From IMG/VR virus record IMGVR_UViG_3300048929_000185, positions 1 through 64,000 of that record: 64,000 nucleotides of DNA; one strand, given 5' to 3'. The notes beneath the pieces were generated by a model. It was not told where the DNA came from. It saw only the letters and a program-made list of their open reading frames with translations, and did not search any database. A program made the position numbers and the translations under genes. Source of the DNA: a virus. Shown one piece after another: positions 7,435 through 63,629 of the stretch. Every line of letters starts with the position of its first letter. Position 1 is the first letter of the stretch.

Positions 7435-7678
7435 GATTCTTCCACCTCTTTTTCTTTCTTTGTTTTGGTCTTATGATGTTCAAGTAAATAAATGACGAAT
7501 GCAGCAATTATGCACACTCCAAATAAACTTGGTACAGCTTCAGTGATTATTAATGCTAATAAGAAATATACGCATAATGTAAAATATGTAAGTATTTCCT
7601 CTACTGCATCTAACAGTTTAAAAATAAATTTCTTCATATTTCTCCTTCCTTTGAAATTCGTGTTTTATTGGTGTTTTT

Positions 7679-7726
7679 TTGCTATATATTGTGTATCGTT
7701 AAACGTTAAACCACTATATATAGTAT
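7679..7726. promoter_or_regulatory. Tandem NrdR boxes
   Basis: TTGCTATATATTGTGT (7679-7694) and CCACTATATATAGTAT (7711-7726), 32 bp apart, upstream of the nrd genes; match acaCwAtATaTwGtgt. Confidence 0.8.
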
Positions 7727-10053
7727 TGATGGACACAAAAATTAGCCACGATATAATTTTACGTTATCATTATCTTCTTCGGATTTGAAACTTTGAATTG
7801 CTGATTCAATATCTTTTAAATCTTCAATGTAAACATAGCCACATATTCCGTCTGTTAGTGATTTGATTTCTAACCCATCAAAAATTGGTATCACTCGGTA
7901 TTCAGGCTTATCCAAATCACTGTTTAATGATTTATTGTATGCTTCTGCGCAATCAATCAACTCCTTTGGAGCTAGCCCGTTACCTGGCTGTAGTTTATTT
8001 TTTAAGAATAATATTTTCATTATCAATCTCCTCCCTTGACAAGCTTTCTTTTAATTTACGTCTCGCAATCTTTCTAAACAATTTCTTTGCTTTTCCTCTC
8101 CATCGCGGATTATATATCTGCGGACAATCCAAATCATATGTGGTCATATTTGATTGCGTATGATTTTTAAAATCATCTTTTCTAATTTACATCACCTCAT
8201 TTACCGATGAACTCGTCGTTTCGAGTTATAATTCATCTGGCAAGTCAATAAATAAAAATATTGCCTTATTCCACTTAACACCTCGATCTTCTAAATCCTT
8301 AAGTCCGTCTTCAGTGAAAAAATCTTTATATCTTAATTCTCCTTCTTTCAAATTATCAAAAAAGTATTCTCTGATCATTGATTTACCAATACTGCCAGCC
8401 CATCTAGGATAATCATCACACCAACATACCTCATACTCAACCATTGGAATGACTTCGAGTTCTGGATTCTCCGCAATTAATTTGTTGAGTTCATATCGTC
8501 TTATGTATCTATCGCAAGACTCTTTATTTGAGTTTTTATAAAGTACAGTTCCATATAATAACTTCCCATCATTATCAATAATTCTGTCATTATTGTTTGG
8601 TATTACACAGTACTTTCCGCAAGACATCTCTGTAACAATTAGTTCGTTCATTTAATACTCACCTCTCTTTTTTACCAATTAAACCAGTCATTTCAAGTAC
8701 TCTTTACTCAACTTAATTACATCTGAAGCCCCAGTTCTTTTCACATAATCAGAAAACATAATTTTGATCATGTCTTCTGTATTCAATTCATTAATCATTC
8801 TCTTTCTATATTGTTCTATTGTACCCTCTCTTTCTATTTCGTATTTATGTAATTCGTGATAACAATCTGAATAATCACTCACTCTTAATTACCTCCTATT
8901 AGTCAGTTTTATACTCAATTGAATTCAAATCAATTGTCTGGAATTCGTCATAAATATTAGGTATAAAAATTCCTATCCAAAAGTCTCTCTGAACTTCTTT
9001 ATTGTAAGATAAATTTTCGTTCCAATTTTGTACTTCATCAATGTAGTTTTTATTGACTATTCCAAACTTATCTCTACACGCCTCCGTTTCTGATTTGTAA
9101 ACTAATGCTTTATATCTTTCTCTATACTCAGCAGATGTTCCTTTCGATCCACAATGCAGCGCAATTACAATAACCAACATAACCACCCCGATTGTTGTAG
9201 CGACTGCTCCAAGTATTACCCACAAATCCTCTAAATCTAAAACATAAAAATGTGCCATAATGAAAAATGCTATAGCCAAAACTACAAAAATCCAAAACAC
9301 CATCTTTTTTTCTCCTTTTCTTTCTATTATTTTCCACATGAAACTGATTTTCTATTTGCAATTATGATTACTCTTTCTCTACGTTTATAACACTATTCAG
9401 CACATATCTATCGTTTAAATAATCAACAATGAATAGATGCTGTTTATCAATATCATCGTCATCTCTTATTGTTACTGTAAAATATGCTCTTTCGTTATGT
9501 ACTTCTAACGTCTCTTCTATAACATTAACTAGATTATAAAGTTCTTTTAATTCGATTATGTATTCTTCTTTATTGACATATAAATACAATTTTGTACCGT
9601 TCCATCTATTACAAAACGCAAATGTGGGTTCATCATCTTTAGAATATTTAACAATTCTTTCAAGTTTACCAAGTCTTTTTAACTGCTTTTCATACTCATT
9701 TTGCTCGTTGCAAAGTTTATCAAATTTTTCCTCAAGCGCTTCAATTCTCTTTTTATTAAACATATTTTCTCCTTATCTATAATGTTTTATTTGTTATACT
9801 TTCCAGTTCCATTACATCTAAGATACATTTCTTTCAAATCAGATGATCGCTCGTACGGATCGTTTCCGTCTGATTTTCTATAATAATATCCACTTCCACA
9901 ACAATCTGGGCATACACCATTTACTTTATATAAGATCTCTCTTGAATTAACCAAATCTTGTTTCTCCTGTGTTAATTGGATTATTTCACTGTCAATCTTT
10001 TTAATTGCTTCGCCTAACTCATTGATTGCACTTTCCATTTTGTTTGTTTCTCC

Positions 10054-10491
10054 TTATCCATAATATTTTTCTATGTAATTCAATGCGTCTAACATGGCTT
10101 CCTTGCCCATTTTAATTTTGTTACAAGCAGGAGGAACCCAACAGTATGTAATCTTGTTTAAATCAGTCTCATTGCCATCGTAGAATCCAACGATAGGTTT
10201 TCTCAACATATTAGCCCACGCAACTTCCATAAGCGTACCTCCAGAATCTTTTGTATTATTTAAGTTAACCAAGATTACTTTTGCTCTCTCAACTCTTTGT
10301 CTACAAAACTCCATAATTTCAGCATTAGAATCATGCAACTGCTCACGATAATTATAATAATCGTTTGGATTAATACCTCTAAAACTTTTAGAATTATCTT
10401 CAAACCATATCTTACAAAACTCACGCCATTCATTACTTTCTTCGAAGCTGATCCTACCGGACGCTCCGCATAACCATACCTCATCTCGCAA
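10054..10491 (-). CDS. Nucleoside 2-deoxyribosyltransferase-like protein
   Basis: VWLCG...WRE...NP...SGGTLMEVAWA...KPIVG pattern. Confidence 0.8.
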   Translation of the reverse strand: MRDEVWLCGASGRISFEESNEWREFCKIWFEDNSKSFRGINPNDYYNYREQLHDSNAEIMEFCRQRVERAKVILVNLNNTKDSGGTLMEVAWANMLRKPIVGFYDGNETDLNKITYCWVPPACNKIKMGKEAMLDALNYIEKYYG

Positions 10492-11203
10492 TACTAATCC
10501 TCCTCATCGTATAAAATATTCATATCCTCAAATGGCGAGTTTGTCATACTAATGTGTTTTCCATATATATTCATCAATTCCCATAACTGAAAACTTGAGT
10601 ATCCGCTGCTGTCTTCTTTAGGATATTCTCTACATAAATAATCGGGACAGAATCCATCTGTTTTTAAAAAAAGCTCCATCAACCAATCATTTTTATGAAA
10701 ATATATATCTTTACCCGTTGGATTTAATTTTACCTTAACCTTTTGGTTGAGATTGATTTTCATTTATTCTCCTTAAACTCTTCATTTACATCGCAATCTT
10801 TACTAATCCAGTACAATTCTCCGTCGCATACATCACACGGCTTGATTATCTCAGACTCAAACAATCTTCCTAACTTATTGAGCCTGATTGATTCATCTGC
10901 GCTGTTCCGGTAATAACATGACTTGCACAATTCACTTCTGTATTCTCTCATTTAAATATCCCAATTCTTTCTAATACTCTTTTCGTTGCTATACGGAATA
11001 CCCTCTTTTACAAACTCATGATTTATAAAAGTATCACAATGAGTGGAAAGTTCGTATCCTCTTTTCTTTTCGGCTATAGTAACCGTGTAAATGTGACCAT
11101 CAATAAATCCAAATGAATTTTTACCGCCTATGTATTTGGCAAATATCTGCCGATCTAATACCATATTTCACCTTCTTTCTATACCAATAAAAACCATAAT
11201 TTA

Positions 11204-11509
11204 TCAGTCCTGATATGCAATCGCTTCCCTTTCGTTTCTCAGCAACTTTAATAGTTCCTTCGTATACCACTCTACCTTTTCAAAATCTTCAATTTCGGCA
11301 GATAACGGATCTTTGTCTATTGTTTTCTTTCCTGCTCTAACGGAATATTTGATGATATTAGCAATACAAAATTCTTTTCCGATTCCCATTGCTTCAATGA
11401 TTTTGATTGCTTCGTATGTATTGTCGGCTCCCCCATAATGACTTGGGTGTGAAACCATCTCCTTTTTAAGAGTGTCCATAGTTTCTTTATCAGCTAAAAC
11501 TGTTTTCAT
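11204..11509 (-). CDS. DUF3310-like protein
   Basis: VSHPSHYG...EAIKII...FCIANIIKYSVRAGKK...EDFEKVEWY. Confidence 0.85.
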   Translation of the reverse strand: MKTVLADKETMDTLKKEMVSHPSHYGGADNTYEAIKIIEAMGIGKEFCIANIIKYSVRAGKKTIDKDPLSAEIEDFEKVEWYTKELLKLLRNEREAIAYQD

Positions 11510-12189
11510 TTATTTTCCTCCAATCCACATTTAATTAGTTCATCTGCATACGGCAAACTATTAACCCAAGCAATAAATGCTTCGCTCCATTCAGATAATT
11601 TATGATTTCTTCTACTTCGATAAATTGAGTATAAATTCTCGTAATTCATAGTGACGGTGCGAGTCTGGAGCCAAGATTCCGGAAGCCAACGAATTAATTC
11701 TTTCCAATATCTCTTATCTTTTGTATTAATATATTTTTTGCGTAAATCTTCTAAAAAGTATATGATACATTCAACTTCCTCTCCTACGGTTGAATTTGCA
11801 TATGAATGAGTGTCTTCACATTCTAAATCCAAATCAACATCGTCTATTTCAAAGCAATCAAGTATAATTGGCGTAGTTGAAAGTTTGTGCATTGTACTTG
11901 TTGAGTTAGCAACCGTACCTATCTTATATGTATCAAATTCTTTCCACCAGTACAGAGGAGCCGTAATATCTACTGAAACCATTATCTGACGAAGGAACTT
12001 TCTGTGTTCGCTTCCTGCCACAATCAACTGTTGAGCAAGTTTCATATCATTACTTCCAATTACATATTTGTTCTGATCCCATTCATCATATCCAGTGTAG
12101 CTATCACTTCTAATCCAAGATTCTTTAGGATTGCGCATACCGCGGAGTGCATGATCAAAGCCCCATACATCTGTCAATTCAAACCTCAC
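11506..12189 (-). CDS. thyX: ThyX-like flavin-dependent thymidylate synthase
   Basis: GSEHRKFLRQI, APLYWWKEFDTYK, STSTMH, RRNHKLSEW; GTG start at 12189 after GGAGG. Confidence 0.7.
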   Translation of the reverse strand: MRFELTDVWGFDHALRGMRNPKESWIRSDSYTGYDEWDQNKYVIGSNDMKLAQQLIVAGSEHRKFLRQIMVSVDITAPLYWWKEFDTYKIGTVANSTSTMHKLSTTPIILDCFEIDDVDLDLECEDTHSYANSTVGEEVECIIYFLEDLRKKYINTKDKRYWKELIRWLPESWLQTRTVTMNYENLYSIYRSRRNHKLSEWSEAFIAWVNSLPYADELIKCGLEENK

Positions 12190-12430
12190 CGTTATTCTCC
12201 TCCACCTTATACTTTTCCATTTCCTTGTAAAATTCAGTCTCTTCTTCATTATCTTCGGTATTGATTTTTACGACCAGTTTCCATCTCGTATCAAGATTTA
12301 GTACTGAGATAAACGACTTTGCATCAACTGATTCATGCCTGGCTGCAAGTCTGAGATCTATATCACTTTTGTACTTACTTGTGATTGTCACAAACTCTGC
12401 CACTTCCTCCAGATTTAATTTAATTTCCAT
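12179..12430 (-). CDS. HPr-family protein lacking His15
   Basis: FV...SKYKSDI...VDAKSFISVLNL (Ser46 region); no GLHARP motif. Confidence 0.8.
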   Translation of the reverse strand: MEIKLNLEEVAEFVTITSKYKSDIDLRLAARHESVDAKSFISVLNLDTRWKLVVKINTEDNEEETEFYKEMEKYKVEENNGEV

Positions 12431-12748
12431 TTACACCTCTCCTATTATTTTTTATTTACCATCATATGTACAAACACTTATTCACCGGAAAACAGTCTAA
12501 GTTCGCCGTTGCCATCAAAATCATCGTAATCAATAATTATGTCATTTCCATCTCTACGGAAAAGTCCTTTAATTTTCCTATCGTCTCTAAATGTGAGAGC
12601 GCTCTTTTTATTTTTGCCAATATAAAGATTTGCGTCAGGGGTCTCTTCAAACATTCTAATTAGTTCATTTAAAATTGCCATTCCTTGTGTCATTTAATAT
12701 TGTTTCACTCCTATCATGTATTTTATTTTGTATGTATTATTGGATTTA

Positions 12749-12780
12749 GTGGTATTTACATTTTGCTTGCTGCCACAAGT
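12749..12780 (-). promoter_or_regulatory. Leader element 1 (UGGCAG-loop hairpin plus AAAUGUAAAUACC)
   Basis: Plus strand GTGGTATTTACATTTT-GCTTG-CTGCCA-CAAGT. Confidence 0.8.
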
Positions 12781-12783
12781 TTT

Positions 12784-12855
12784 ATTACTATATTACCTTT
12801 GCTACTTCTTTAGTATATCATTACTATATTTCTCTGTCAAGGTAAAAAATAAAAA
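12784..12855 (-). promoter_or_regulatory. Repeated sigmaA promoter, copy 1
   Basis: TTGACA (12835-40)-17-TATACT; ATTACTATAT at 12784 and 12820. Confidence 0.88.
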
Positions 12856-13652
12856 CATTTTTCGACTTGAAATCCTAGATTTATTGCTCCAAACTTTCAA
12901 GAGCGCATTCAATAGCTTCATTAAAACCGCAACCGCCGTTATAATAACTTAATACATAGTCAATCGTACCGTCTTCATTAATCGAAGCATGATATATGTC
13001 ATCTCCGTCAGCTTCCACATCCTTGATTATTTTATAAACATTGTTGTTGCAAATTATAAATTCTTTACTACATTCATCACTAAAACATTCTTCGTATGAG
13101 CCATAATATGATCTCATTTTAATTCCATTTCGAATGCAGTATTCTTTACACCAGACTTCTACTGTCTGAAAGCTTGATATATCTATTTTTAATAATTTCC
13201 CTACATGAACTTCTGTCTGTGACATGTTAATTCCTCCTTTAAATCTCCAATTTTATTCATTACTTGTTGACTTATCTGTTCTGAGTAAATCTTTGTAATA
13301 TTTTACACTGTTATCGTAAGTTACGGTTGATCCCTGTGAATTATATCCGCATGAGCATTTATAAAATACCTGTGATTCTCCATACGAATACGAAATATAA
13401 CTCTGCATTAGCCTACTACAATTTGGGCAAAACATGTTATGCTCCATCTTAATCCTCCTTACTCATTTCCAAAATATATACATTGTGAACACTCATTATC
13501 GATTGCCACTTCTATCGCATCATCTACATCTTTTTTATGTACTTTCTTAACCTGATTCGTAAATTCATATCCTAAATTTTCTTCAATTATCTTTAATGCT
13601 TCTGCAAAACTCTCTACCCGTTCCCAGTTATTATTTACGTAGACCGTATCCG

Positions 13653-14048
13653 TTACACCTCCTTATAAGAGTCTGGCATCGGCTTCCATGCGATCACCTC
13701 AAAACTATCGTCATTAAAATTACACCATTTTCCGTCTACGGTTATATCGTCGCAAGTAAATACTGTATCATTATCATAATTTTTCACAGTAACTAATACC
13801 ATATCTGATGCAGCATATCGTCTAACATCTATAACCGCCATAGTATCTATGTCCCATATATCTCGCGATTCTTCATGTTCTTCTGGCATACATTCGCTTA
13901 CTGGAATCCATCTGTCTTTATCTTGGTTCTTCAACGCTTCTATCGCCATGACAAGAGCTTCTGTGATTTTGATTGCTTTTGGATATTCTAATTTAAAATG
14001 AATGTCCATATGATCTTTTATTCTTGAAATTGCTTCACCCTTTGTCAC
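13653..14048 (-). CDS. DUF551-like phage protein
   Basis: WIPVSECMPE...VIAWKPMP. Confidence 0.75.
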   Translation of the reverse strand: MTKGEAISRIKDHMDIHFKLEYPKAIKITEALVMAIEALKNQDKDRWIPVSECMPEEHEESRDIWDIDTMAVIDVRRYAASDMVLVTVKNYDNDTVFTCDDITVDGKWCNFNDDSFEVIAWKPMPDSYKEV

Positions 14049-14894
14049 TTAATTACCTCCTCCTTGAAACTACCATTTTATACGCTTACTACCAACGTCA
14101 AATCTTCCGTACCGTCATCATTATTCTTTATTTTCACCTCAAAATCGGCTTTATTTTTAACCGCTAGTCTTACCTTGTCTTTCATATCTCTATCTTTTAT
14201 TCTAAATAGATAATAATGCTTTCCGGATCTATCCTTAATTTTAGTATCTACATCACTTGTTTCATAGATAATACCCTCTGTCTCTCTTCCAAAATAAAAG
14301 AATAACCAACCGTATAGTGGATAATCCCCTTTACCGAAATGCTTATCACACTTTGGTAATAACCACGGGTCTTTTAATGAAAATTGAAAATAAATAGAGT
14401 ATGCTTCTTTTGTTTTAAAATTCACATTTAATAAATTCCATGTAAATCGTCTCCTATCGATATGTAATAACATACGTCCTCCTACTATGGATTTGCAGTT
14501 TTAACTATCCTACCGTAAACCATCTGTCGTAATCGTTTTCACCCACATTATTTTTATGTAATAAGTTTTGCAACTCATTAAAGTCTTGCTCTGTACTTTC
14601 TGAATAGTCTGGAAACAAAGGCTCGCTATTATAGTCAATATCATAGAAATCAGATTCAACCACTGAAGAATCTCTCATTACCACTACTATTTTTCTATTC
14701 ACTTATTCTCCTTCATCCCATCTAAATTTAAAGATGTTTCGCAAAACTTCTTGATCTCCTGAACACTTTTACCATCGTCACACATATTTAGCACAGCACC
14801 AAGTATTCCACAAGCACCTGCCCTCATTCCGTCCAGTCTTACTTTATCCAACGTTTTCTTAGCAGCATTTTCAAACTGCTGTTCAACTGCATTT

Positions 14895-16076
14895 TTATTT
14901 TTCATTTAATAATCCTCCATTCTTTTTGTTAATTTTGTTTGATCTGAATTCCATAATCTTACTTTGCAAATATGCTGGCTGAACAGGATATTCTAAATTC
15001 AAGCCATTTAAAACGCTTTCATCATATCCAAGTAGTTTCACACACTCCAATGCCATATCTTTTTCAAAATAATCCAATTCTTCTTGAATATCAAATCTGC
15101 CGTACCTAATTAGTGCCGCATCTATTCTCTCTTTATAATTCGTTGTAGCAACGTAAATTGTGTTTTCAGTAGAATAAATTCCATCTAGTAATTGAAATAC
15201 CGCGTTCTGGTTATTATCTTTCTGCTTTTTACTTTCTATATCCAGCTCAACACCTTCAGTTTCTTCCCGACTTTTAAAGAACATATCGAAATCTTCAATT
15301 AATACAATTATGGTTCCATCGTATTTCTTACGCATCTTGAGAATTTTGTTAATTGAATTCATGATATTGGCAGGATCAATTGTTAATATCGGTGCATTTC
15401 CAAACATGGAACTTATGGCTTTCGCCACGGTTGACTTCCCAGTTCCTGGCTTTCCGTATAAAAACACCCCAATTTTATGAACTAACTGATGATTTTCGTA
15501 CCATTCTTTGCTCTTATTCCAGCTCTTTAAACCAGAGACTATCCTTTCTTTTACTTCGTCATCAAGGATTATGTTGCTGAAGTCGTGAGGTATAGTATCA
15601 CAAGTAACGTCAAACTCATTTAAAAATTGCACTCGTATGTGTTTATCATCTGTAATTTTAAGAGCGTCTTTTAAAAATTTTTCTCTGATTTTATATCTAT
15701 CTCTTCCATAAAAAATAAGTTTAAGACGAGGTTCTGGATAATATGTCTTTTCGCTTTTGTTCTTATAAGACTCAACCTTTATGTAATTACCCCTATTTAC
15801 TTTGACAAAATATGTAGTGTCGCTGCATAATTCATAAAATTCCTTATTTGTGGTTGGGGTTCTATGTTTGATAAAAGTGTCAGGATCTAGTTTGTATATC
15901 ATCTTATTTATGTTGTTGTAGGCATTATCCCACTCTCCAACGTCAATAACAGAACTCTTTAAACCCTTTATTATTTGAATCGCACTAGATATAGCTGTCG
16001 CTCCAATAGAAACCGCAACTCCTGTAGTTATCTGTTTTAAGACTGTATCATTTTTATTTGATATAATGTGTTCCAC
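14895..16076 (-). CDS. AAA+ ATPase (BCS1-like)
   Basis: GKPGTGKS, VLIEDFD, LLDG, TTN, IDAALIRYGRFD. Confidence 0.9.
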   Translation of the reverse strand: MEHIISNKNDTVLKQITTGVAVSIGATAISSAIQIIKGLKSSVIDVGEWDNAYNNINKMIYKLDPDTFIKHRTPTTNKEFYELCSDTTYFVKVNRGNYIKVESYKNKSEKTYYPEPRLKLIFYGRDRYKIREKFLKDALKITDDKHIRVQFLNEFDVTCDTIPHDFSNIILDDEVKERIVSGLKSWNKSKEWYENHQLVHKIGVFLYGKPGTGKSTVAKAISSMFGNAPILTIDPANIMNSINKILKMRKKYDGTIIVLIEDFDMFFKSREETEGVELDIESKKQKDNNQNAVFQLLDGIYSTENTIYVATTNYKERIDAALIRYGRFDIQEELDYFEKDMALECVKLLGYDESVLNGLNLEYPVQPAYLQSKIMEFRSNKINKKNGGLLNEK

Positions 16077-16115
16077 TTCCTCTCTTCTGCAAATGAACTG
16101 TTGGTTTCCTCGGCT

Positions 16116-16883
16116 TTACACCACATAATTTTTATCGTTTTCTATTTTAACCTTGTGATTCAATAAGGCATTATATAACTTAAGTGAAATCATATTTTTG
16201 TATTCTTCGGCAACGCTTTTTATTGCTTCCTCTTTTTCTTTAGCATATATTTCAAATGCATCTAATATATCGTCATACGCTCCAAGCATATACCCATTGT
16301 ATTCTGCTCTATATCTACCATATTTATCTACCCATATTCCATTTGGTAAACCTCTTTTGTTTGGCTTATTTAGAAATAACATGTTAATTCTTTGTGGAAC
16401 AAGTAAACATTTATCTGGTGAATATTCCTTGTTGCCCGGAATTAAAATATCTTTATCTAAGTGCAATCTTTCCTCTGTATCTATATAGTTATCATCAAAC
16501 CACTTAGCAAAATTTTGATAATTATGCCACTCTTCACATGTAGTACAAATCCCAGAATATGTTGGAAATTTCTTTTTATTTTTAGAATAACATCTCCTAA
16601 TCATTTCATACCAGCCCGCATATGCTAATGTATGCGCTTTAGATGTACCAGTTTTATACTTTCCGTCTCCAAGATATCCAACCCCATAAACTATTTTATC
16701 ATATGGATTACAGATAACTCCATTTTTAAAATTAACATATGTATTATTAAATTTGACATAATGATACTCATCAAGGAATTCTACATCTATATTAGAACAA
16801 TCTTTGTATTTTATTATTTTCATTGGAGTACCTCTATTATTAATGCCTAATTCCCCCGTTCTATCATTAAATAATCCATGCAA
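16116..16883 (-). CDS. Free-standing HNH-type homing endonuclease
   Basis: WYEMIRRCY...CEEWHNYQNFAKW...LDKDIL..GNKEYSPDKC. Confidence 0.85.
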   Translation of the reverse strand: MHGLFNDRTGELGINNRGTPMKIIKYKDCSNIDVEFLDEYHYVKFNNTYVNFKNGVICNPYDKIVYGVGYLGDGKYKTGTSKAHTLAYAGWYEMIRRCYSKNKKKFPTYSGICTTCEEWHNYQNFAKWFDDNYIDTEERLHLDKDILIPGNKEYSPDKCLLVPQRINMLFLNKPNKRGLPNGIWVDKYGRYRAEYNGYMLGAYDDILDAFEIYAKEKEEAIKSVAEEYKNMISLKLYNALLNHKVKIENDKNYVV

Positions 16884-16887
16884 TTAC

Positions 16888-17226
16888 CTACTTCCTCCCC
16901 TCACTCTTAATGGTTTCTAATTTATACTGTTCTAAAAAGTTACTCGCCAAATGCTCCAGGTACTTACGATGTTCATTTGTCAGTTTGTACTTCAAGTCAA
17001 ATCCGGTTGCGCTGCTGTAATCTTTCAGGCACTCATAATAAAAACATTCACTGATTCTATCTCTATTCTCATTTACTAACTTCTCGAGAAGTTTGGCACA
17101 CTTATCGTAATCCGGATCTGAAATTATATTACAATTGTAATCGTAGTAGATTATGCTATGTATTATGAGCTTACGGCAGATCCAGTCGATTTGATCTGTT
17201 ATGGTGAGATTATTAAACGTTGTCAT
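16888..17226 (-). CDS. Stand-alone NAD-dependent ligase domain Ia-like protein
   Basis: HSIIYYD...IISDPDYDK...LEKL motif without an adenylation domain. Confidence 0.7.
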   Translation of the reverse strand: MTTFNNLTITDQIDWICRKLIIHSIIYYDYNCNIISDPDYDKCAKLLEKLVNENRDRISECFYYECLKDYSSATGFDLKYKLTNEHRKYLEHLASNFLEQYKLETIKSEGRK

Positions 17227-17880
17227 TTGTTTTCCTTATATTCATTCATTGCCTTCTGTAAACATTTGGCTGCTTCTTCTGCGGTAATATTGCTAACATC
17301 ATCACAATTCATCATTGAGGCTCTTTCTAATTCATAATATTCGCATCTTCATGGTTTAAAAGTAGTGCATTTCCCGTGTTCGTCAATTTCAATTCTTTTC
17401 TCTTCAAGATTTCTTTGGCAACAATCTTCCCAGTAATATTTACACTTTGTGTTCATACACATCATGTTTATAGCCATCTAATCATCTCCTTACCTCAGTT
17501 CTTATTTTTTAATTGGCTTTCCAGTTCCGGACACGAAATTGTGACCAAGGTTCTCAATAATGTCAGCGATTTCATCTTGCAATTCTGATACAATTTCAAT
17601 ATACGTTCTTTTGTCTTTGACATTAAATTCAACAGAGAATTTAAGTTCTACACCACCGATCTCAGAATCACCAATTATCATACATTCGTTCTCAGTACTC
17701 GAATGCTTTTTATTCTTTCCTTTATGTCTGTATATACCGTATGCTTCTTTCATTACCAACAAAATACTTATTATAGCCGACACACATAGCAATACGCTTC
17801 CATAAAACAATATATTGTTAATTAAATTTAACACTCACAATCACCTCTTTTCTCCCATGAAAGGTTTCTTTCATTTCATT

Positions 17881-18252
17881 TCATTCTATTAATCCTGGGT
17901 TTTCATAAATATTTCCGATCACTTCATAACTTCCATTAACAGAGCCATGATATCCACGATATTGTTTTACTCCTACGCTTTTAAATTCACTTCCTATGTA
18001 TGTTATTACTCCAATGTGTCTATGTGATTTACCTCTATTCCACTCTTTCCCCTTTATAACGTCGCCTTCATACATCACATTCTCATTCTTATCTTTTAAT
18101 TCCGTAGATTGCATTAGAATAACATCATTCCAAAAATCCAATGGTGTCGCGTGTAGATATGGATAACAAGTTCCATCTCCGAAATCTACTATCGGAATAT
18201 CAACCATTAATTCATTTTCTTTATCCCATACCCTGAATTTAATATCTCTCAA
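17881..18252 (-). CDS. YopX family protein
   Basis: IKFRVWD...LMQSTELKDKN...YEGDVI...EVIGNIYENP. Confidence 0.92.
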   Translation of the reverse strand: MRDIKFRVWDKENELMVDIPIVDFGDGTCYPYLHATPLDFWNDVILMQSTELKDKNENVMYEGDVIKGKEWNRGKSHRHIGVITYIGSEFKSVGVKQYRGYHGSVNGSYEVIGNIYENPGLIE

Positions 18253-19581
18253 AAAATTTCCACCTCCATAGTTGTAATGAATGTATTAATTTAATTTAAC
18301 TTTTCAATAATTATCTTGTACTTATCGTCTTTTTCGGTATCTTTTCCAATTAACTCATCTAACGCGGTTGGTACGTTAGCAGTAAATATTGCATCTTCGG
18401 TTTCGAAATACCAGTCATGACCGTCTGTTCTCACTGTTCCACTAATTTCTATAATAGATTTTGCATTGTCAAACTTATCATACGACAAACCATTATCTGT
18501 AACTTTGTTGATTTTTTCCATAGCATCATCTATGTCTTTAACATCTCTAACCAATTTTTTAATAATTTTAATCAGTTCATCATTTACCATTTATTTTCCC
18601 TCCTTGAAACGTCGGTTTCAACTGCTTAAAGTGCATTTTTCATTAAATATTCTGCAATATCTGTTGTAATTTCTTCATCAAACTCTTCAAAATCATCTAA
18701 TGATATCGTTCCAACCCCGAAGGCTGACTTATCTCTGGTAAGGTTGTAAGCGTATGAATCGTTTCCGATATCAAAATATTTATCCAACACAAGCTTGATA
18801 TTTTCTTCTGTAAACGCATTCTCATAATCAAACAACTTTCGTACAAGTAATGCAACAATACCTACTTCTTCTCTATCAACACGATATAAAACTATGCCGC
18901 GAGCATCTAAGACATCAATTGATCCATCACTATTTTTATCTAAAATTTTATTCATATATAATCCTTTCTTTATTTTGCTTTGTTCTCCAAAATTTCCAAC
19001 CTTTCATTGAGTCTCCAAATCAGATTTTTTAGTTCTCCTAATTCTGTTTTTAAAGATTCAACATTCCGCTCTCCATACGTAAATCTCCTCTCAAACCTCT
19101 TTTTCATTTTATAGAACTCCACACATTGACCATAAATCTTCTAAATACGCGGATGCCAGCTTAAGCATCTCTTTTTCTACATATACTTCGGTTCCCATCA
19201 TTCCTGGATATCCTATTTTCGACTTCTCTTTAAGGTAGTTAAGCACTTGTTCTGGATTGCTTACTGCATCAAATTTTTCTTCAAAACAAGAATCCAATTT
19301 GGTGTTTTTGCCTTGTGAAATAATCATGTCATATTTTTCCAATGAGTTTTCACCAATGTAAAAAAGTCCAAATTCATCATTAATTTTTAAATAATAATAC
19401 TCGCAACCATCATCATTGTTCACATGACTTTCTGTAATTACGGCTATTCCATTTTTTATTGTTTGTTTTTGAATAAAACTTTCGTTGATCTCAGTTATTG
19501 TTCTTGTAATTTCGGGGATTAAAAACCTATCCCCAATTTTATACTTTCTACTCATTAATATCCTCCAATTCTCCATTAAAA

Positions 19582-20127
19582 TCATACTTTCAAAGCCCTG
19601 TCATATTTGATTAACTCTTCTATAATTAAGCTATCTGACAATACATCTTTGCAAAAATAACAAGTAGCAAAACTATTCCATGTTTTACATTTTTCTGCCG
19701 TTTCATGAAATCCAATCCTTTTATCAAAAGATAACATCTGAATTCCGTCTTTGAAATATTTATATCGTTCAATTCCTTGCAGCGTTTGCAGAGGTAGCAG
19801 CATAGCAAATGGTATATGTAAATTATATAATCTCTCTAAGATCAAATCTTTCTTGGAGAATGGAGGATTTGAAACTATGTAGTCAATTTTTTCATCTGGT
19901 AAATAGTCAAAGAAATCCTTGCCATCATCTATGTGTGATCTTGTAACATGGAACCCTCTTTCCTTTAGTAAATTATAGAAAGCACTTCTTGACGAATCAA
20001 ACGGTGTCCAGATAGTAGATTTGGGCTTTAAGTATTTTATAATTGGTTCAACCGCATAATATGGAGTTTCCCAGTTGTCTTGATTACTTGTTCTATCGCT
20101 GTTTAAATATCCTGTATTTCGTGCCAT
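19582..20127 (-). CDS. Small DNA adenine methyltransferase
   Basis: WETPYYAV, IWTPFD, DFF and IVSNPPFS motifs. Confidence 0.82.
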   Translation of the reverse strand: MARNTGYLNSDRTSNQDNWETPYYAVEPIIKYLKPKSTIWTPFDSSRSAFYNLLKERGFHVTRSHIDDGKDFFDYLPDEKIDYIVSNPPFSKKDLILERLYNLHIPFAMLLPLQTLQGIERYKYFKDGIQMLSFDKRIGFHETAEKCKTWNSFATCYFCKDVLSDSLIIEELIKYDRALKV

Positions 20128-20211
20128 TAGTCACCTTATTAGTAGCTGCGCAGCTTTATCATCGATGACTTTTACCTTTCTTTTTTGTCTTTGAATCTTT
20201 AATTTCATATC

Positions 20212-46360: not shown

Positions 46361-46366
46361 AGATTA

Positions 46367-52481: not shown

Positions 52482-54541
52482 GTTATTTAGCCACCTCTTC
52501 TAAAAGTTTACCTGTTCTTCTGAAATACTCATTGCTTATGGTTGGGTTCATCACGCCACATCTTTTATACCACTTTTCAATATATCTCAATTCTGAATCA
52601 GTCAGCCTTGGCATGGTTGCCGAGGTATGCCATAAACATTTTTGATGTATGACCTCTTCCGGAGTTTTACAGTTTACCAACATTACATCACCAGCAGCTG
52701 CCACCTGACCTTGCCATTTTGCTTCTTTATATAATGAACTTGCACCTTTGCCGATTAATCCTGCAATAAATAATCCCCACATGCTAAACTCCTCCTAAAA
52801 TTGCTCGTTTCGTGTTAGTATTTTACATTTTTTATATGATTATCAATATCCTCTTTGACTTCAGACGGAGATAAACTTTTGCAATTACAAGCATCTCCGC
52901 GCCACGCACCATAAGAATAAATAAGTTTACCATCTTCCCAACATTCCATACAATTAAAATCTTCTCCGCACTTAACTTCCTTGGAATTTAATAATTCTGA
53001 TACAAAAATAACTGCTGAATCAAAATTATCACTTACAAACGCATTTTGGCTCCATTCATAGTCACCACGCACAACTACATATATTCTCATCTATATACCA
53101 TTCCTTTCATGTTTAAAATTTTTGTCATCAGATACTTTCTCCATTTTAGTTCATCTACTCTTGTAATAGATAAATCTACTAAATCTCTGTATTCTATTAT
53201 ATCATTCTTCATTCTTGTTCTCCATATTTGCAAGAAAATAGCCAGCAACATTTGACCGCTACTGACCATAAAAATCAATATATTTAACCAAGTTCGGGTT
53301 CTTCGTTTATAAAATCGTACCTTCTATTTGAGAATACTTTTAAATCACAAAACATAAATTTTTCTCTACCAGTCCAAAAATTTGTTACATCTCCGGTATT
53401 GGTGATAATTGGATTTGTGCTATACTTCCGCACAGCTCTATAATACGTCTCCCCTGCTTTTAACTGATTCGAAAATTCTTCTAGTGTAATTTTAGTTTTT
53501 TCTGATTTTTCGAAATCAAATTCGTTCACATTCTCAATGTAAGCAACCACATCGTTTTCCACGTCAATTTCAATAATTAATCTTCCATCGGCATCCATTT
53601 TTTAGCCCTCCATATTATCATTATTTCATATGATTATATCATAAGCACAATTAACAGACAATGAATGTTGCCAAAGAAATGATTGATTTATTGATAAATT
53701 TCAGTTTAGTCAATGCAGAATTCTCTTTTCCACTTCTCAAAACATACTTTACAAGCAGTAGCTGGGAAAGCCAATACTTCACTACTTGCAATATCTGTAT
53801 CATAAAAATCTGTATCTTGCTCATATTTTTTACATAAACTATTTCCTTCGATAAAACAGTGGTATTTTGCTCTTCGATCTATGTAATTACGTTTTCCATA
53901 CCTTGGATCTTCTTTCACAGGAATCTCCCATACTGGTTGCCCACTAATCATCTTAGGTTTTATGTATTTAACCATCTTTAATCCCCCAATTCCGCAAAAT
54001 TCTAACCTAACTAATAAATCACTTATTTTAAAGTTAAATCTTGGTCTATAATGATTCATAAAATGTATCAAGCAATTCGTTATACCATTGTTCTTTATCA
54101 AACTCCGTACTCGTATGAGTGGCTATTTTATCACCTGACATATTAAATACCATAAACTGCCCATTAAAGGTATTTAGTATTATTGCAAGTGGAGTATCAT
54201 GCCACACTCCTTTAAAACTTGCGAAATCTCCTCCGTTGTCAAAATCTCTAGTGTCAACTTGCATACCTTTATCTTCCATTAGTTTACAAATATTTTCATA
54301 TTTTCTGTTTCCTTTATATTTTTTCATTTTTATCTCCTTTTCTACTTTGAAATTGTGCATTTATCTGTTTACTTGATGCATAATCTTTTCTTTTGCGCTC
54401 TCAATGTCTTTTGCGACCACATTTATTTCTTTATCATTGATGACAAATGAATATGTGGCATACAGCCCATAATACAGTCGTGATGATTCATCATACTTAC
54501 TCATTTTTATATTCCTCCAATTGAATCTTGTATTCATTTTG

Positions 54542-57066: not shown

Positions 57067-60000
57067 CTTTCAGCCTCCTTACATCATTATATTATCACTT
57101 TAACAAGTACCTGTCAAGCACTATTTTATGTATTTTGTGTTTATAAACGCCTTTAAAATCACGCTTCTATCTGTCTATTCAGCATTCAGTTCAACAGCAG
57201 CGCCTTCACAATTCCTAAATCTTAAAGTACCATCTTGTATCATTTCATACATGGCTGTTTTGAAACCAGAGTCTTCTCTTATAACTTGAATATTTAGTGG
57301 AAGAAAATCTTCTTCTAATATAAGATGAATTACTTCTGTTTTCTTGTTGTCGTAATAGACACTAACTGCATTTATAACTGAATTCAATACTTCACTATCA
57401 CAATTCGAGTTTCCCGCTTCCCATTTCCCCTGATCTTTAATTAAATATATTGATTCTTTCTGACCGCAACGTAATCTACCCTTAAAACATGAAGCGAAAT
57501 TCCCAACACTTCTATAAAATTTGAATTCTGAAAATTGATCCATTATATTCCCCTCTCTTTCTCAATAAAAGACTTCATTTATCAGTTTAATAATAAAAAA
57601 AGAAGCCATATTAAGCTTCTTATGTTTGTACGTCATCTAATACTTCTGAGATTGCTCTTTGTCTGTTTTTCATAAGCACATCATACATTAAATTTGGATT
57701 TTGCTTTTCTGGCATGACTATGATGTCAGATTCAAATGATTCCAGTCCTGTAATTATTATTTCATATGCCCACTTACCATCGACTTCATATTCAGTAAAA
57801 TCAACCGAATCGCTAAAAATAACATTTTTCTGTAAAATATTTATATTTTGTTTCTTACACAACATTTCAAAGTCGATATCTTCAAACCCTTGTATCTCAT
57901 ACTCTATTCCATCGTAAACAAATTTTACCATTGCCATAATTAAGTACCTCCATGTATTGATTATATTATCATAAGTATTTAATTACAAGCACATCATTAT
58001 AAATTCATCTGTGCTCATTGCTCCTTCATACCAACATACAATAGCTGGGTGTGCCTCTGATTGGTCGTTTAGATATTCCTCTAACTGATTCTGAAAATAT
58101 CTTAGCATCTTATGACCAAACGCTTGTTTGATCTTAATAAATTCTTTGCATTGCTCCAATACTCCGTATTTCATGTCGTTATCTCCTTTATATTTTATTT
58201 TTAGATAGTGCCTTGACAGCCTGTGACAGCCACGAGCCAGGAAACGCTCTTCAAGGCGGCTTATTCAATTCCCGTGCATGACAACGCTTAATATCTCGCT
58301 AAAACTCTTGCATGTAGCTAAATATTCATTACCTTTGTAAAACCTCAATCTCCCCGTTATTGGTCAGTTTATAACTAAATCTCAAATTACTCATGCTTTG
58401 CTGTCTCCTTTATCTGTGTAAATAACGCAACCGAAACAATTAATGACCATGCTGCCAATGTCCAGTTTCCGTCCTGATCTGGTAGCTTATATAAAACAAA
58501 AATGGAAAGCAATAGTAAAATGCCTCCCACGATCTTGTAGATCTTATTCAGTTTGTTTGACTTCTGTTTATGTATGACTGACCCATAATCGTATGAATTG
58601 TCGTAGTTCCTAACTGTGTCTACCATGAGCTACTCCTTTCTTGATATTAACTTTCTGATATCCTCCAATGCCTCTGTGAAGCTACTATGCCACATATAAT
58701 GCCCCTCAGTATCATAGACGTATATATCTTTGCCTTTAGTGGTTTTACCGCCGTTATCGCTCATATTTTTTCCTCTTTCCAATTATAAATTTGCCAATGA
58801 TATACCAGTAATTGAATTTTGCCTAAATCCGTTTTCCTTGCAGAAATCTTTCCATAATGAAGAAAGTTCTTTACACTTACGCTGAATGTAGTCAAATTGA
58901 TATGGAAGCACATCTAACTGCGTCTGATCATATTCTCCTTCAGTGTTTACAAAATCAATGTTGAAATTCCAGTAACCAAATTCGTCTGTTAGAATGACGC
59001 AGCTTGATGGGATTTCTATATTTTTAATAGCACTTTCAAATACCATTTAATTCCCTCCGTTTTAATAATAAAATGTGCTTTTTATTTGATGTTACAAGAT
59101 TCTTTTAACTCCCAATTTGCTTGCTCTGCATCTTTCTTGGTAACATAACACTCGATAACCGGATTAAATTCGTATCCCTCTTGGTCATATACAAGTGCAT
59201 ATTTCTTGCTAGGATAATATTTGCTTGTAAGAGGATTATCATTTTTAGATATATCTGTCACACCCTCAAAAGTACGTTTTACTATTTTAATATTAGTTAC
59301 CTGCATTCTTATTTCCTCCTTTAAAACCTGTTTTTTATCTGCACATATCAAATGGAATATAGTAACACTCACCATTACAAAGCATATATTCAAAGCCAAA
59401 TTTTGTTATCGTTGTAATAGTTCCGTTGATGTTATTTTCTCTCATGTATCTAGTAGCTAGACATTTTTCCATTCTATTCCCTCCTTAAAATCTATTTTTC
59501 ATGGTGTATTGACGCACCCATTTTATTGCCACATGAACACCTGATCTCCAATGTGATTTTTTCTAATTTGCCATTAATGGATTCACAATAATGATGTGTT
59601 GGCACTATCCAAGCTTCCTTTCCGCACCTATTGCATACAACACTAAAATCTTCATTATTTCCATATTCTTCTGTTCCAAATGGTCTAATCATTTTACATT
59701 CTCCTTTTCATTTTAAAATTACAATTTTAATTATATCCTAGACATGTTTTACAAGCTCCTACAAGCGCGTGATCCGTTAACATTTGTCTGGTAATAATTG
59801 CATAAGCTAATTGACGGTCGAGCAATGCTTTTTCTGTTAAGTGCTTGATTACATCGCTACCGTCTCCCATTTCAAAACAAGCATCGAATTCCCTGTCGTC
59901 TTCTCCTCTGCGTGGTCTTCCTGACTTTATCATACTGGCTGCTAATGTTGCTCTTGCTTTTGCGGTTTTTACTGTATATGGATTTCTTTTATTCATAATA

Positions 60001-60280
60001 TTTAAACCTTTCTTTTATTTTTATAAGCCATTGAAAATTACATTTTATTTACATTATTTCTACATTATACTTTTTACTATCTATTGCTTGACCCGTGTAT
60101 CCATCTCCACAAAAATCTGAAACATTCATTGCTTCGGTTTTATTCCCTGTGATTGCTAAAATCTTATAAAAAACAGTTTCGCTATGTGAATATTGAGATA
60201 TTTCATTGTTCTCTTTGTTTAACACTTTAAACATATTTATTGCCCTCTCTTTCCAAAGGAAACTTACTTTTGAACCGCTT

Positions 60281-61736: not shown

Positions 61737-62785
61737 TTAATTTAACTTAATTATTCCCACTATTAAAGCCACCGGAACGCTGTCCAATGGCTTTAAACTG
61801 TGGATAAAAGTACTATTCTATGTGTATTAATGATTCTCTAACCACTTTCAAAAGTGCGGTAAAATTATCTTCATGTATTGTATAATCTGAATAATAGTTT
61901 TTAAGTTTCCAACCGCTTTTGCAACCAATGACGCACCAAAACCCATCATCATCTTTATATATATCTTTAATGGCAGCGTGATACTTTTTAGGTATCCTAT
62001 TTAATAATTTTTTATCCATATATGTTATCTCCTGTTTGTTTTAGGTTAAAATCCGCATTTTATTAAGCAAATAGGTTCATGGGTTTCATAGTCTTACTTG
62101 CTACCCAAGACTTCCAACCATATGAATAATAAACGTTTGTATATTCTGGATTTTCGTTACTGAATACGATTGCCTCTTCTTCAAAATCAAATGTATAAAA
62201 ATCATGCGTTTTGTTATCTGTATAACGTTCCATTTGATTACCTTCCCTTTTACTGTCAAAGAATAGTTTTATTTACTATTGTTTAAGTACGGAAAAACCT
62301 TTTTCGTTTTCCATATCGTAAAATAAACTTGCTTCTTCTAATGATATTTCATCTATTGATTCTATATCATGTGTTTTATAATGATATTTCATCATATCAG
62401 TTTTCAAGAAATTCCATACTTGTTCTCTTGATGGCTGTTCTACATCTGATTTAATGCAAATACCGTAACTATCAGTGAATAAAATTTCATAATACTTTGT
62501 GTTCTTGCAATATTTCATCTTCTTTTCCTCCTCATAAAATAATCGTTTAATTGGTTTAATACTTCAATGTAAAATCATCTGTTAAAAGAATGTCGTGTAC
62601 CCCTTTAATGAAATGAACGTATCCTTTCTGATTTATGTACCATTCCTGCCCCTTTGTGTTATAGATATTGTTTGATGTGTAACTACCTACAACACTGTTT
62701 ATAAGTTCTTCTTTTAGCTTTATACAAGCATTATTTGTATAGGCTTCTTTAATACAGTAGGCCATGTCATTTCCTCCATTCTACA

Positions 62786-62860
62786 CCTACGGACTTGTGA
62801 CCGTCTGACTTGCGTCAGGTGCATTAAAACGGCTATGTGTCAGCCGTTTCACTCTGCTGA
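62786..62860 (-). ncRNA. Twister ribozyme (circularly permuted, P5-type)
   Basis: GCA-GAGUG-AAACGGCU/AGCCGUUU-UAA-UGC-AC-CUGAC(GCAA)GUCAG-A-CGG-UCACAAGU-CCG: P1-P4 plus pseudoknots GUG/CAC and AC/GU. Confidence 0.85.
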
Positions 62861-63452
62861 TTAATAAGTATACATAGTTTCAATGTCTACCCATTTGTTA
62901 TTTTCTTCATTATAAAGTTTTCCGGTACAACCATCTAACCAACTAGCTTTTATAAACCAATCACCAGAAAACTCAAAGTATTTGTAAGAAATATTATAAT
63001 TTGCTTCAAGTAATTTTAATATTACTGTTTTAGGAACTCCTTCTCTTCCGGCAGATAAATAACATCCACATTCCCCTTCTTTTCTTGCTTCTTCAATTTT
63101 GTCTAAACATTTAATCAATGCTTTTGGTTCTGTCTCCATTCTCATATTTTCCGCTTTTGGCACATGAATTTCTTTGATTGTTCCGTTCTTTTTCATAATT
63201 ATTATTCTCTCTTTCCGCCACGTAAGGCTATAAAATTCGGTATTTATTGATTAGTCATTTCTTCGATTCTATTTGTTACCTGTTCAATTTTACCATCTAT
63301 TGCAATCAAGCTTGATACAAGCTGCCAGTCGTAACCGCTACCTAATTCCTTGCAAATCATTTCTCTTTTATCTTTCATTCTTTGTAAATCGGTAATTAAA
63401 TAATCAATCTGTTTCATATTTATGTCCTCTCTTTTCTGATAAAATGGATATT

Positions 63453-63629
63453 TTAACGTTCCCAATAGTAACCAGATCCGTCTAATAACGTAATCTGTAC
63501 GCCATCTGCGTCTGCTTGAATGTCTGCAACCTGATTCATGTCAATCATGTCTCCGTTTCCAAATCTGCCAAATAAAAAAGCACTTATGACAAGTGCGGTT
63601 GTGATGATTGCATATTTGATTTTTCTCAT
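63453..63629 (-). CDS. Small secreted/membrane-anchored protein (58 aa, absent from ORF track)
   Basis: MRKIKYAIITTALVISAFLFGR...; AAAGGTG RBS; stop codon lies inside the 18-bp site at 63439. Confidence 0.7.
   Translation of the reverse strand: MRKIKYAIITTALVISAFLFGRFGNGDMIDMNQVADIQADADGVQITLLDGSGYYWER

Follow-up and report, generated by a model that had tools for sequence, protein, structure and literature searches.

How unrelated genes come to be joined cleanly at gene boundaries is a long-standing question of phage mosaicism. The question is posed by the first 64 kb (hereafter the window) of a single 123,206-bp virus record, IMGVR_UViG_3300048929_000185, in which an 18-bp dyad recurs between small genes. 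The dyad consists of two 6-bp arms around a 6-bp centre, and its strict form is WTRAAA-N6-TTTYAW (WTRAAANNNNNNTTTYAW). A preliminary description of the window had taken the dyads for the joints of an integron-like system of gene-cassette capture and shuffling. The dyads mark the gene boundaries in question and coincide with actual swap points in two clades of relatives, one of which includes the tractable model phage SPbeta, so that the question becomes directly testable. The best explanation, to which a probability of roughly 0.4 is assigned, is that the dyad is a boundary element, predicted to be bound by a protein, at which phages cross over by way of short identity.

The window contains 25 strict matches, where 1.39 would be expected from shuffled sequence (sd 1.10; largest count 5; 0 of 100 shuffles reached 25). 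When the spacer was varied from N0 to N12, N6 alone was enriched, with 25 matches against 0-4 at each other length; both checks had been proposed beforehand, and both favor the motif. With up to one mismatch allowed, N6 gave 81 matches, compared to 29.1 in shuffles and 27-47 at N4, N5, N7 and N8. When every trimer-gap-trimer pair upstream of left-arm genes was counted without bias, AAA-N6/7-TTT and TAA-N9-TTC came directly behind the ribosome-site words, a high ranking that is absent in the right arm. Across the whole 123-kb genome, a weight matrix found 57 sites at a score of 12 (8.2 in shuffles) and 101 at a score of 10 (28.3 in shuffles), and the earlier estimate of about 60 copies is therefore fair; because this genome also supplied the training set, the scores serve for description only. 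Information content drops to background outside the 18 bp, leaving a conserved arm of 6 bp on each side. Strict matches are concentrated in one part of the genome, 26 of 29 lying within 1-66 kb and three within 66-123 kb.

The earlier list of 61 coordinates held up in part. It comprises 20 perfect sites, 25 with one mismatch, 14 with two and two with three; 43 score at least 10, 17 are too weak against chance by sequence alone, and the site given at 37501 is better placed at 37505. Ten junction sites, marked as new in Table 1, were missing from the list. The spacers of 56 junction sites are all different, as had been noticed, but this is about the chance expectation and is no finding on its own. 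Duplicate centres among relatives (0 of 668 and 1 of 77) are likewise about chance level and have no evidential use.

Genes run leftward across 1-66 kb of the genome and rightward across 69-122 kb. The order on the gene strand is stop codon, dyad, 3-20 nt, ribosome site and start codon, as previously described, and the 3' end of the dyad lies mostly 12-27 nt upstream of the start codon. Some 50-60 copies separate a stop codon from the ribosome site that follows, and they are limited to the leftward early arm. Among junctions with a gap of at least 25 nt, as defined by crude gene calls, a site is carried by 50 of 87 in the accessory blocks, 5 of 35 in the rightward late arm and 5 of 10 in the two core blocks. 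The claim that core-block junctions have none was nearly right, in that the strict matches there (291 and 33480) are inside genes, but weak sites occur at 5 of 21 core junctions by a crude count. The stop codon occupies arm positions 2-4 (TAA or TGA) in 15 sites, which confirms all 15 gene ends named beforehand. Promoter-like sites are not enriched in the arrays (115 against 103.6 +/- 9.9 expected) and terminators are few, consistent with the idea that a few promoters feed long arrays. A 12-base box on the minus strand has exactly two copies in the 123-kb genome (7682-7693 and 34666-34677), each preceded by A and each about 13 nt upstream of the dyad that heads a core block (the NrdD block and the Sak/replication block, respectively); the core genes may use it as a promoter or regulatory box.

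WTRAAA is the consensus of both half-sites, without covariation between the arms. Positions 3 and 16 are paired in 38 of 57 sites (40.1 expected; 15 A-C mismatches), and positions 1 and 18 in 24 of 57 (27.4 expected). Spacers do not pair with either flank (3.66 against 3.60 +/- 0.10). The mean folding energy of the dyad is -0.9 kcal/mol, and swapping spacers between sites is without effect (-2.64 against -2.72). A symmetric consensus without covariation indicates that the dyad is a duplex-DNA site for a predicted two-fold symmetric protein, and not a hairpin, an RNA or a single-strand structure. A hairpin or RNA element was rejected because the arms do not covary and folding is weak.

The left arm contains about 120 small genes in total. 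It encodes NrdD, a DnaE-type polymerase, DnaG, DnaB, two tyrosine recombinases, an AAA ATPase and antirepressor-like genes, in addition to C5 and N6/N4 methylases, a Sak annealing protein, a PD-(D/E)XK nuclease, two HNH endonucleases and a MazF-like toxin. Homologues of YonO, YonJ, YonN, YomM, YonG, terminase, tape measure and Dut were found in SPbeta by tblastn, indicating that this is a distant SPbeta-like phage. The host labels of relatives are Lachnospiraceae and Eubacterium. A megablast search of phage sequences gave no match to the genome, and neither IMG/VR, searched with the recombinase encoded at 51489-52481 alone, nor metagenome contigs, searched with the same protein, yielded a close relative. 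The polymerase retrieved one relative (45%) from IMG/VR and three metagenome contigs (L079, L080 and L081) of 71-74% nucleotide identity, which have almost no accessory DNA in common with this phage. Homology to these three contigs ends inside the polymerase gene, about 200 bases before its end (window 25708-25915), and everything downstream differs; their polymerase genes are followed by a dyad whose centre is identical in all three.

Because the phage has no close relative in the collections searched, breakpoints were examined in sister clades. Among the gut-phage sister clades, many loci are 93-99% identical with insertions and deletions, and individual junctions are seen where homology starts or stops at a dyad. 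Of 363 unique sharp breakpoint classes, which are not independent events as many loci are near-identical strains, 154 are at a site scoring at least 9, compared to 3.7% of random positions; at a score of at least 12, the figures are 121 of 363 and 1.6%. A breakpoint was found at 130 of 225 distinct gene junctions that bear a site and at 134 of 624 that are site-free (58% versus 21%; odds ratio 5.0, from non-independent data). These comparisons are limited by crude gene calls and by the many relatives whose records are fragments.

The position of the breakpoints within the site is informative. Right-flank homology begins at site position 5 or before in 72 of 77 gut-clade classes, and left-flank homology ends at position 15 or after in 74 of 77; it ends at position 15 in 19 classes and begins at position 4-5 in 14. 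The centre is therefore common to both partners, with arm variants going with their own flank. Moreover, the whole spacer is identical between partners at 146 of the 154 site-associated classes, which is contrary to the proposed tolerance of non-homologous spacers.

A second clade gave the same picture. In the SPbeta group (seven loci), 33 of 52 breakpoint classes are on a dyad scoring at least 12, against 2.7% in the null. For example, Goe12, SPbetaL2 and Goe13 remain homologous to SPbeta (NC_001884) up to the final base of its dyad at 116414-116431 and no further. Precise junctions without a dyad also occur in this group, at ribosome-site or overlapping stop-start sequences. The alignment of related phages, suggested beforehand as a check, thus placed gain and loss breakpoints on the sites in two independent clades, both composed of relatives. 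The dyads are preferred points of gene gain, loss and replacement in relatives, and we infer the same for this phage. The part of the preliminary description that saw gene-shuffling joints in the dyads is supported to this extent, whereas its integron-like capture is not.

A single centre can have many neighbours. One occurs in 25 combinations of flanks, drawn from 11 classes upstream and 13 downstream, and at least three of the four gametes were recovered for 13 centres in the gut clade and four in the SPbeta group. The order of shared centres is concordant in 12,821 comparisons and discordant in 19, although synteny alone would give the same, and the DNA between consecutive centre pairs differs in length in 32 of 97. 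Purifying selection on the centre was first hinted at by a spacer divergence of 1.7-2.6% against 13-23% at upstream wobble positions. This proposal was withdrawn, since the centre has drifted too where both flanks are at least 10% diverged (15 of 96 positions and 6 of 7 site families, in 16 pairs); the apparent conservation is thus a by-product of one-sided mosaics. Nor was it replicated in the SPbeta set, with 5.3% in the spacer and 4.1% upstream (22 pairs).

In laboratory phi3Ts-SPbeta hybrids, 15 of 16 junctions are in homologous regions and one is after yosA (bioRxiv 10.1101/2020.05.06.055103). The non-homologous junction after yosA is in the same neighbourhood as the SPbeta dyad at 116414-116431; the junction was not found in the hybrid records over SPbeta 115.7-117.3 kb. 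Three sequencing runs, as contigs only, contained no joint at a dyad and have no bearing on circles either way. The single joint in these runs (46361 back to 40001) is an effect of the 63-bp repeat at 46299-46361.

The motif extends well beyond this phage. SPbeta has 34 strict N6 matches, against 0-5 at other spacers, in the same stop-dyad-ribosome site layout. Over whole records, strict matches and matches to a reversed-pattern control number 35 and 5 in MT835469, 23 and 0 in phage Nate, and 36 and 2 in Geobacillus E3 (together labelled W01-W03), and 17-38 and 1-4 in the gut-phage records G002-G006. Motif-poor records are Lactococcus phage P1048 (W04; 3 and 0), G001 (4 and 0) and G007 (also L039; 2 and 3). 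P1048 has a DnaE-type polymerase, three strict dyads in 123 kb and no HU-like gene, and its group is a natural negative control. Lactococcus uses XerS rather than XerC/D (PMC5357621), the bearing of which on P1048 is uncertain. A crude 5-mer palindrome scan revealed no alternative palindrome in the motif-poor relatives L039 and L001. Xer-like recombinases of about 330 aa related to that of 51489-52481 are common in 90-166 kb phage contigs, and 50 of 55 IMG/VR loci of this family have at least three strict N6 matches in about 21 kb, whereas other spacers never exceed three. Carried by SPbeta, by Geobacillus E3, by a Tsamsa-like phage and by some 50 gut-phage loci, the motif is a phage feature common to a very wide evolutionary range that includes phages of Bacillus, Geobacillus and gut Clostridia.

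Two host genomes contain 51 and 65 strict matches, against 33 and 29 control matches, and the excess is confined to prophage contigs; in the first, of 2.8 Mb, 10 of the 51 strict matches are in prophage. The same arms in distant phages, without a host excess outside prophages, suggest that the protein that reads the motif is conserved and probably phage-encoded. A metagenome contig whose polymerase is 52% identical (L082) has extremely dense dyads at 13,000-21,000; it counts 18 strict N6 matches over 23 kb, nearly all with arms of the ATAAAA/TTTTAW type. No description of the dyad was found in the literature on SPbeta, phi3T and Tsamsa phages, a search that did not cover the original 1999 SPbeta genome paper, which could mention it.

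Which protein reads the dyad? The preliminary description had nominated the recombinase of 51489-52481. It looks catalytically intact, residues R183, H279, R282, H305 and Y315 being invariant in 20 sequences, but its distribution does not support the assignment: there is no homologue in the motif-rich SPbeta, MT835469, Nate and Geobacillus E3, and the motif-poor G007 has one. Its orthology to YopP or YomM was considered and not shown (BLASTP E 0.96 and 0.018, respectively). A YomM-like recombinase, encoded at 80958-81989 of the genome, is common to SPbeta, W01-W04 and G007, thus including the motif-poor P1048 (45% identity) and G007, and is weak or absent in G002-G006. Neither phage recombinase family tracks the motif. 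An open reading frame in the control region (46980-47924; 314 aa) was tried as an MrpR-like protein and rejected, with no Pfam family, no BLASTP similarity to YopR and no relative of solved structure.

The best lead is a predicted HU/IHF-family, YonN-like protein encoded outside the window, at 79582-79914 of the genome (Pfam PF00216, 8.3e-32). An HU-like gene is present in eight of the nine motif-rich genomes tested, counting this phage's own: it was found in SPbeta, W01, W03, G003 and G004, and weakly in W02 and G002, and was not found in the motif-rich G006 (a record 71% complete). It is in none of three motif-poor records (W04, G001 and G007), two of which are 42-46% complete. Among 45 further relatives it is present in 35, including all nine of those at least 90% complete. 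The HU-family protein TF1 of phage SPO1 has a role in early-gene shut-off. TF1 also has a long specific binding site (PMC2528193).

The explanation favored here is that a phage-encoded dimer would bind the two 6-bp half-sites and thereby maintain the dyad, the YonN-like protein being the lead and possibly acting as an architectural or early-gene shut-off factor. Dyads would be kept at the boundaries of exchangeable early-arm gene modules across a supergroup of large Firmicute phages, SPbeta included, and related phages would cross over at them, swapping the genes on either side. Exchange would fall at dyads because the identical tract of 12-18 bp or more is the sole sequence common to otherwise unrelated neighbours, and annealing recombination (Sak plus nuclease) could use this tract. 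One site would in this way join many alternative left and right neighbours, with the order of sites along the genome fixed. In favor of annealing, genes for Sak and a PD-(D/E)XK nuclease are present here and SPbeta has the Sak4-like YorG; the precise dyad-free junctions, the lack of a recombinase that tracks the motif and the drift of centres with diverged flanks point the same way.

Several observations weigh against this explanation. Binding, cleavage and exchange are all deduced from sequence, and the evidence of recombination comes from relatives, not this phage. As many as 209 of 363 gut-clade classes and 19 of 52 SPbeta-group classes are not at a site scoring at least 9, and 18 bp is little for annealing recombination to act on. 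A 6-bp centre in inverted arms, identical between partners, looks just like a tyrosine recombinase site; every motif-rich phage examined has two or three recombinase-fold genes of unassigned role, and different recombinases could serve different lineages. An architectural role gives no reason for a site at nearly every module boundary. Finally, the HU co-occurrence is a lead and not a result, since these genes may simply belong to the conserved core of the phage group; its negative side consists of the three motif-poor records, two of them substantially incomplete, and the weak hits (E about 1e-4) may be spurious.

Short elements that serve as boundaries for gene exchange have precedents. The promoter-early stem-loop (PeSL) cassettes of T4-type phages combine a sigma-70-like promoter with a terminator hairpin and are exchanged between largely identical elements, and mini-circles have been shown (Arbiol et al. 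2010, PMC2839356). Like PeSL elements, the dyads are short, repeated and located between small non-essential genes of plastic regions, where recombination gives insertions, deletions and replacements among close relatives, and the dyads are enriched at breakpoints in both clades of relatives. Unlike PeSL elements, they have no promoter or hairpin, their arms are 6 bp and each copy has its own centre. The pdif sites of Acinetobacter plasmids are 28-bp XerC/XerD sites that resemble chromosomal dif and alternate in orientation (Mindlin et al. 2019, PMC6449649). They are likewise dispersed core sites with a 6-bp centre that flank modules in varied contexts, and the action of the enzyme is inferred largely from comparison. 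In contrast to pdif, the dyads are symmetric, conserve 6 bp per arm, occur in Firmicute phages and have no cognate recombinase assigned. The dyad is best called a variant of the boundary or linker elements for modular exchange, as it fits the behavior of PeSL and pdif elements but not their anatomy. If exchange is guided by homology, the dyads would still be a clearer case of functional linkers in modular exchange than any so far.

Two mechanisms would fit the comparative pattern, namely annealing on the identical tract of 12-18 bp or more and site-specific recombination that depends on centre identity. The second is the most serious alternative, although doubtful on present evidence. A dimer of a tyrosine recombinase would sit on the arms, cut at the edges of the centre and recombine only sites with the same centre. 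Unique centres would stop some 60 sites from deleting each other and would let co-infecting or resident relatives swap modules in register; the enzyme could be phage-encoded, with a different paralogue in each lineage, or host-encoded. This would amount to a natural counterpart of heterospecific-site cassette exchange, as engineered with lox and FRT sites, in which universal 6-bp arms are combined with a separate 6-bp "address" for each module boundary. The strict 6-6-6 inverted architecture, the arm variants that travel with their own flank about a common centre, and the lack of duplicate centres here (56 sites) or in relatives (668) speak for such a system, although the last is about what chance would give. 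The recombinase of 51489-52481 retains its catalytic residues, its best solved relative is XerH, and the arms of the XerH site, AGTTATGAAAA and AAAAGTTTGA around a 6-bp centre, resemble the dyad arms (PMC5357621). Several recombinase-fold genes are present in all motif-rich phages examined, and the Tsamsa phage has three that are unrelated (PMC3903500).

The dyads share the inverted arms and 6-8 bp centre of Xer/dif-type cores, but they lack arms of about 11 bp with conserved outer positions, and no cognate recombinase accompanies the sites wherever they occur, at least for the phage-encoded Xer-like and YomM-like candidates. The Xer-like protein is absent from SPbeta and W01-W03 and present in the motif-poor G007; P1048 and G007, poor in the motif, both have the YomM-like protein, which gives weak or no hits in G002-G006. 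The single-recombinase sites difH of XerH and difSL of XerS occur once per chromosome, function in dimer resolution and have arms of 10-11 bp (Castillo et al. 2017, PMC5357621). Their inverted arms similarly end in an A run beside a 6-bp centre, yet the matching hexamers of difH would be 8 bp apart and those of the dyad are 6. Centres that drift where both flanks diverge and precise junctions at dyad-free sequences also count against same-centre recombination; no joint or circle was seen in three runs, which consisted of contigs. If same-centre recombination nevertheless operates, the addressed system would be common to SPbeta-like, Tsamsa-like, Geobacillus E3-like and many gut Clostridia phages, and would give physical substance to the "linker sequences" that the modular theory of phage evolution postulates. 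A dedicated enzyme would represent a new class of addressed recombination that explains the spread of anti-defence and other accessory genes.

It is improbable, to a further degree, that the dyads are an array of operators at which a regulator blocks or times early transcription, and that breakpoints coincide with them merely by way of short non-coding gaps. The model for such an array is the stoperators of cluster A mycobacteriophages, 13-bp asymmetric sites oriented with transcription that the immunity repressor binds without cooperativity, with 20-30 repressor sites in a genome (Mavrich and Hatfull 2019, PMC6550527). Dozens of short copies of a protein site, mostly off promoters and in short gaps between co-oriented genes, are seen in both cases. 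Restriction to the early arm, a fairly constant distance to the ribosome site, long co-oriented arrays with few promoter-like sites and terminators, and the co-occurrence of an HU-family gene would all suit a regulator. However, site-bearing junctions break 2.7 times as often as site-free ones, and replacement of either flank leaves the entire site and its centre in place, which random joining in a 40-nt gap would not produce. In addition, the dyads are symmetric and keep identical arms in phages of Bacillus, Geobacillus and gut Clostridia, whereas stoperators and other immunity operators diversify with their repressors between heteroimmune phages (PMC6550527).

SPbeta-like phages also have a documented operator of their own. 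SPBRE boxes, read by MrpR/YopR/SroF, are a 15-bp motif with about ten promoter copies (PMC10516654), and SroF binds as a monomer to a non-palindromic operator of 24-26 bp (bioRxiv 10.1101/2025.11.27.690993). Both elements are repeated, intergenic and found in the same phage group, and the reader of SPBRE has a recombinase fold. The SPBRE core, AATATGTATA, is present in nine of ten listed SPbeta upstream regions and is unrelated to the dyad, such that SPbeta carries both elements. The dyad was therefore rejected as an SPBRE/MrpR operator: it differs in core sequence, in location away from promoters and in being a palindrome, while the SPbeta master repressor binds a non-palindromic box of 15-26 bp as a monomer.

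Integron-like capture, in which each promoterless gene has its own site and the recombinase of 51489-52481 moves circular cassettes while tolerating unlike spacers, is very improbable. Integron attC sites are longer, act as folded single strands, number one per cassette, adjoin an IntI/attI/Pc platform and frequently enclose the stop codon. The resemblance lies in small, promoter-poor units of ribosome site and open reading frame, in the stop codon inside the arm of 15 sites and in an intact recombinase within the array. However, the 18-bp site is not specific to a cassette but stays complete with whichever flank is conserved, partner spacers are identical and not unlike, and arms that do not pair leave no folded-strand signature. 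The recombinase does not co-occur with the motif, no attI/Pc platform is evident among the ordinary small genes beside it, and no circles were seen in the contig-only runs. The proposal that the dyad is an RNA-level signal (a hairpin, processing site or translation enhancer) or a by-product of stop-codon and AT-rich boundary composition, which would suit its place in the transcribed gap just upstream of the ribosome site and the TAA/TGA spelled by arm positions 2-4, is largely refuted already, by the symmetric consensus, the weak folding without covariation, the strict N6 requirement and the near-absence of sites at late-arm junctions of the same genome.

Table 1. Features of the window (score, weight-matrix score; strict, match to the strict motif; new, absent from the earlier list)
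Feature	Position	Strand	Details
Accessory array 1, small minus-strand genes with dyad sites	7651..24910	-	Site of score >=10 at 14/26 junctions with gap >=25 nt
Accessory array 2, continues to ~66 kb of genome	34635..63456	-	Site of score >=10 at 36/61 junctions with gap >=25 nt
Dyad site	7651..7668		Strict; score 15.8
Dyad site	8679..8696		Score 12.0
Dyad site	9338..9355		Score 13.4
Dyad site	11187..11204		Score 12.0
Dyad site, new	12867..12884		Score 12.8; stop codon in arm
Dyad site	13239..13256		Score 12.1; stop codon in arm
Dyad site	14064..14081		Strict; score 16.0
Dyad site	17857..17874		Strict; score 14.0
Dyad site	18604..18621		Strict; score 14.1
Dyad site, new	19576..19593		Strict; score 13.4
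Dyad site	20191..20208		Score 12.8
Dyad site	21226..21243		Strict; score 12.7
Dyad site	22674..22691		Score 15.2; stop codon in arm
Dyad site, new	23531..23548		Score 11.4
Dyad site	24893..24910		Strict; score 14.7
Dyad site heading replication block	34635..34652		Strict; score 12.3
Dyad site	35177..35194		Strict; score 13.4
Dyad site	35549..35566		Score 13.5
Dyad site	36202..36219		Score 14.4
Dyad site, new	36694..36711		Strict; score 13.9
Dyad site, earlier placed at 37501	37505..37522		Score 11.0
Dyad site	38097..38114		Strict; score 15.8
Dyad site	38871..38888		Score 11.8
Dyad site	41007..41024		Strict; score 14.1
Dyad site, new	41546..41563		Score 12.5
Dyad site	42344..42361		Strict; score 14.7
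Dyad site	42839..42856		Score 13.2
Dyad site	43181..43198		Score 14.2
Dyad site	43441..43458		Score 12.8
Dyad site	44042..44059		Score 12.2
Dyad site (weak)	44321..44338		Score 10.5
Dyad site	45672..45689		Score 12.6
Dyad site	45890..45907		Score 13.9
Dyad site	46115..46132		Score 13.1
Dyad site	49169..49186		Strict; score 14.0
Dyad site	49586..49603		Strict; score 13.0
Dyad site	50355..50372		Score 11.7
Dyad site, new	50748..50765		Score 13.7
Dyad site, new	51246..51263		Strict; score 14.7
Dyad site, new	54014..54031		Score 12.4
Dyad site	54347..54364		Score 13.0
Dyad site	57153..57170		Score 13.2
Dyad site	57565..57582		Score 12.3
Dyad site	59068..59085		Strict; score 13.6
Dyad site	59321..59338		Strict; score 16.1
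Dyad site	59485..59502		Strict; score 14.3
Dyad site	59713..59730		Strict; score 11.9
Dyad site, new	60001..60018		Score 11.3
Dyad site	60031..60048		Strict; score 14.0
Dyad site, new	61804..61821		Score 12.0
Dyad site	62046..62063		Strict; score 16.2
Dyad site (weak)	62534..62551		Score 10.1
Dyad site	63230..63247		Score 12.8
Dyad site	63439..63456		Strict; score 11.7
Xer-like tyrosine recombinase, not supported by co-occurrence	51489..52481	-	Pfam PF00589 1.4e-23; XerH 5jjv 1.5e-14
Second tyrosine recombinase (integrase type), left end	786..2000	-	Pfam PF00589 1.5e-27
Sak-type single-strand annealing protein, candidate for short-identity exchange	33868..34608	-	Pfam PF06378 1e-24
PD-(D/E)XK nuclease, replication/recombination block	29091..29873	-	Pfam PF12705 3e-19

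Other features of the window deserve brief mention. A near-perfect palindrome of about 57 bases (1-57) opens the contig; it may represent a hairpin telomere, serve packaging or replication, or have arisen in assembly at the end of a linear molecule. Two HNH endonuclease genes, 3043-3720 (HNH_3 plus AP2 domain) and 33195-33854 (NUMOD4 plus HNH_3), are inside the tightly packed core blocks and resemble free-standing homing endonucleases. In array 1, the C5 cytosine methylase gene (20212-21120) adjoins that of the N6/N4 methylase (21280-21966). The control region at 46-49 kb has the strongest promoter-like and terminator-like sites; it contains a PemK/MazF-family toxin gene (48347-48775; PF02452, 1.2e-25) and the 63-base stretch at 46299-46361, which is repeated at three further places of the genome.

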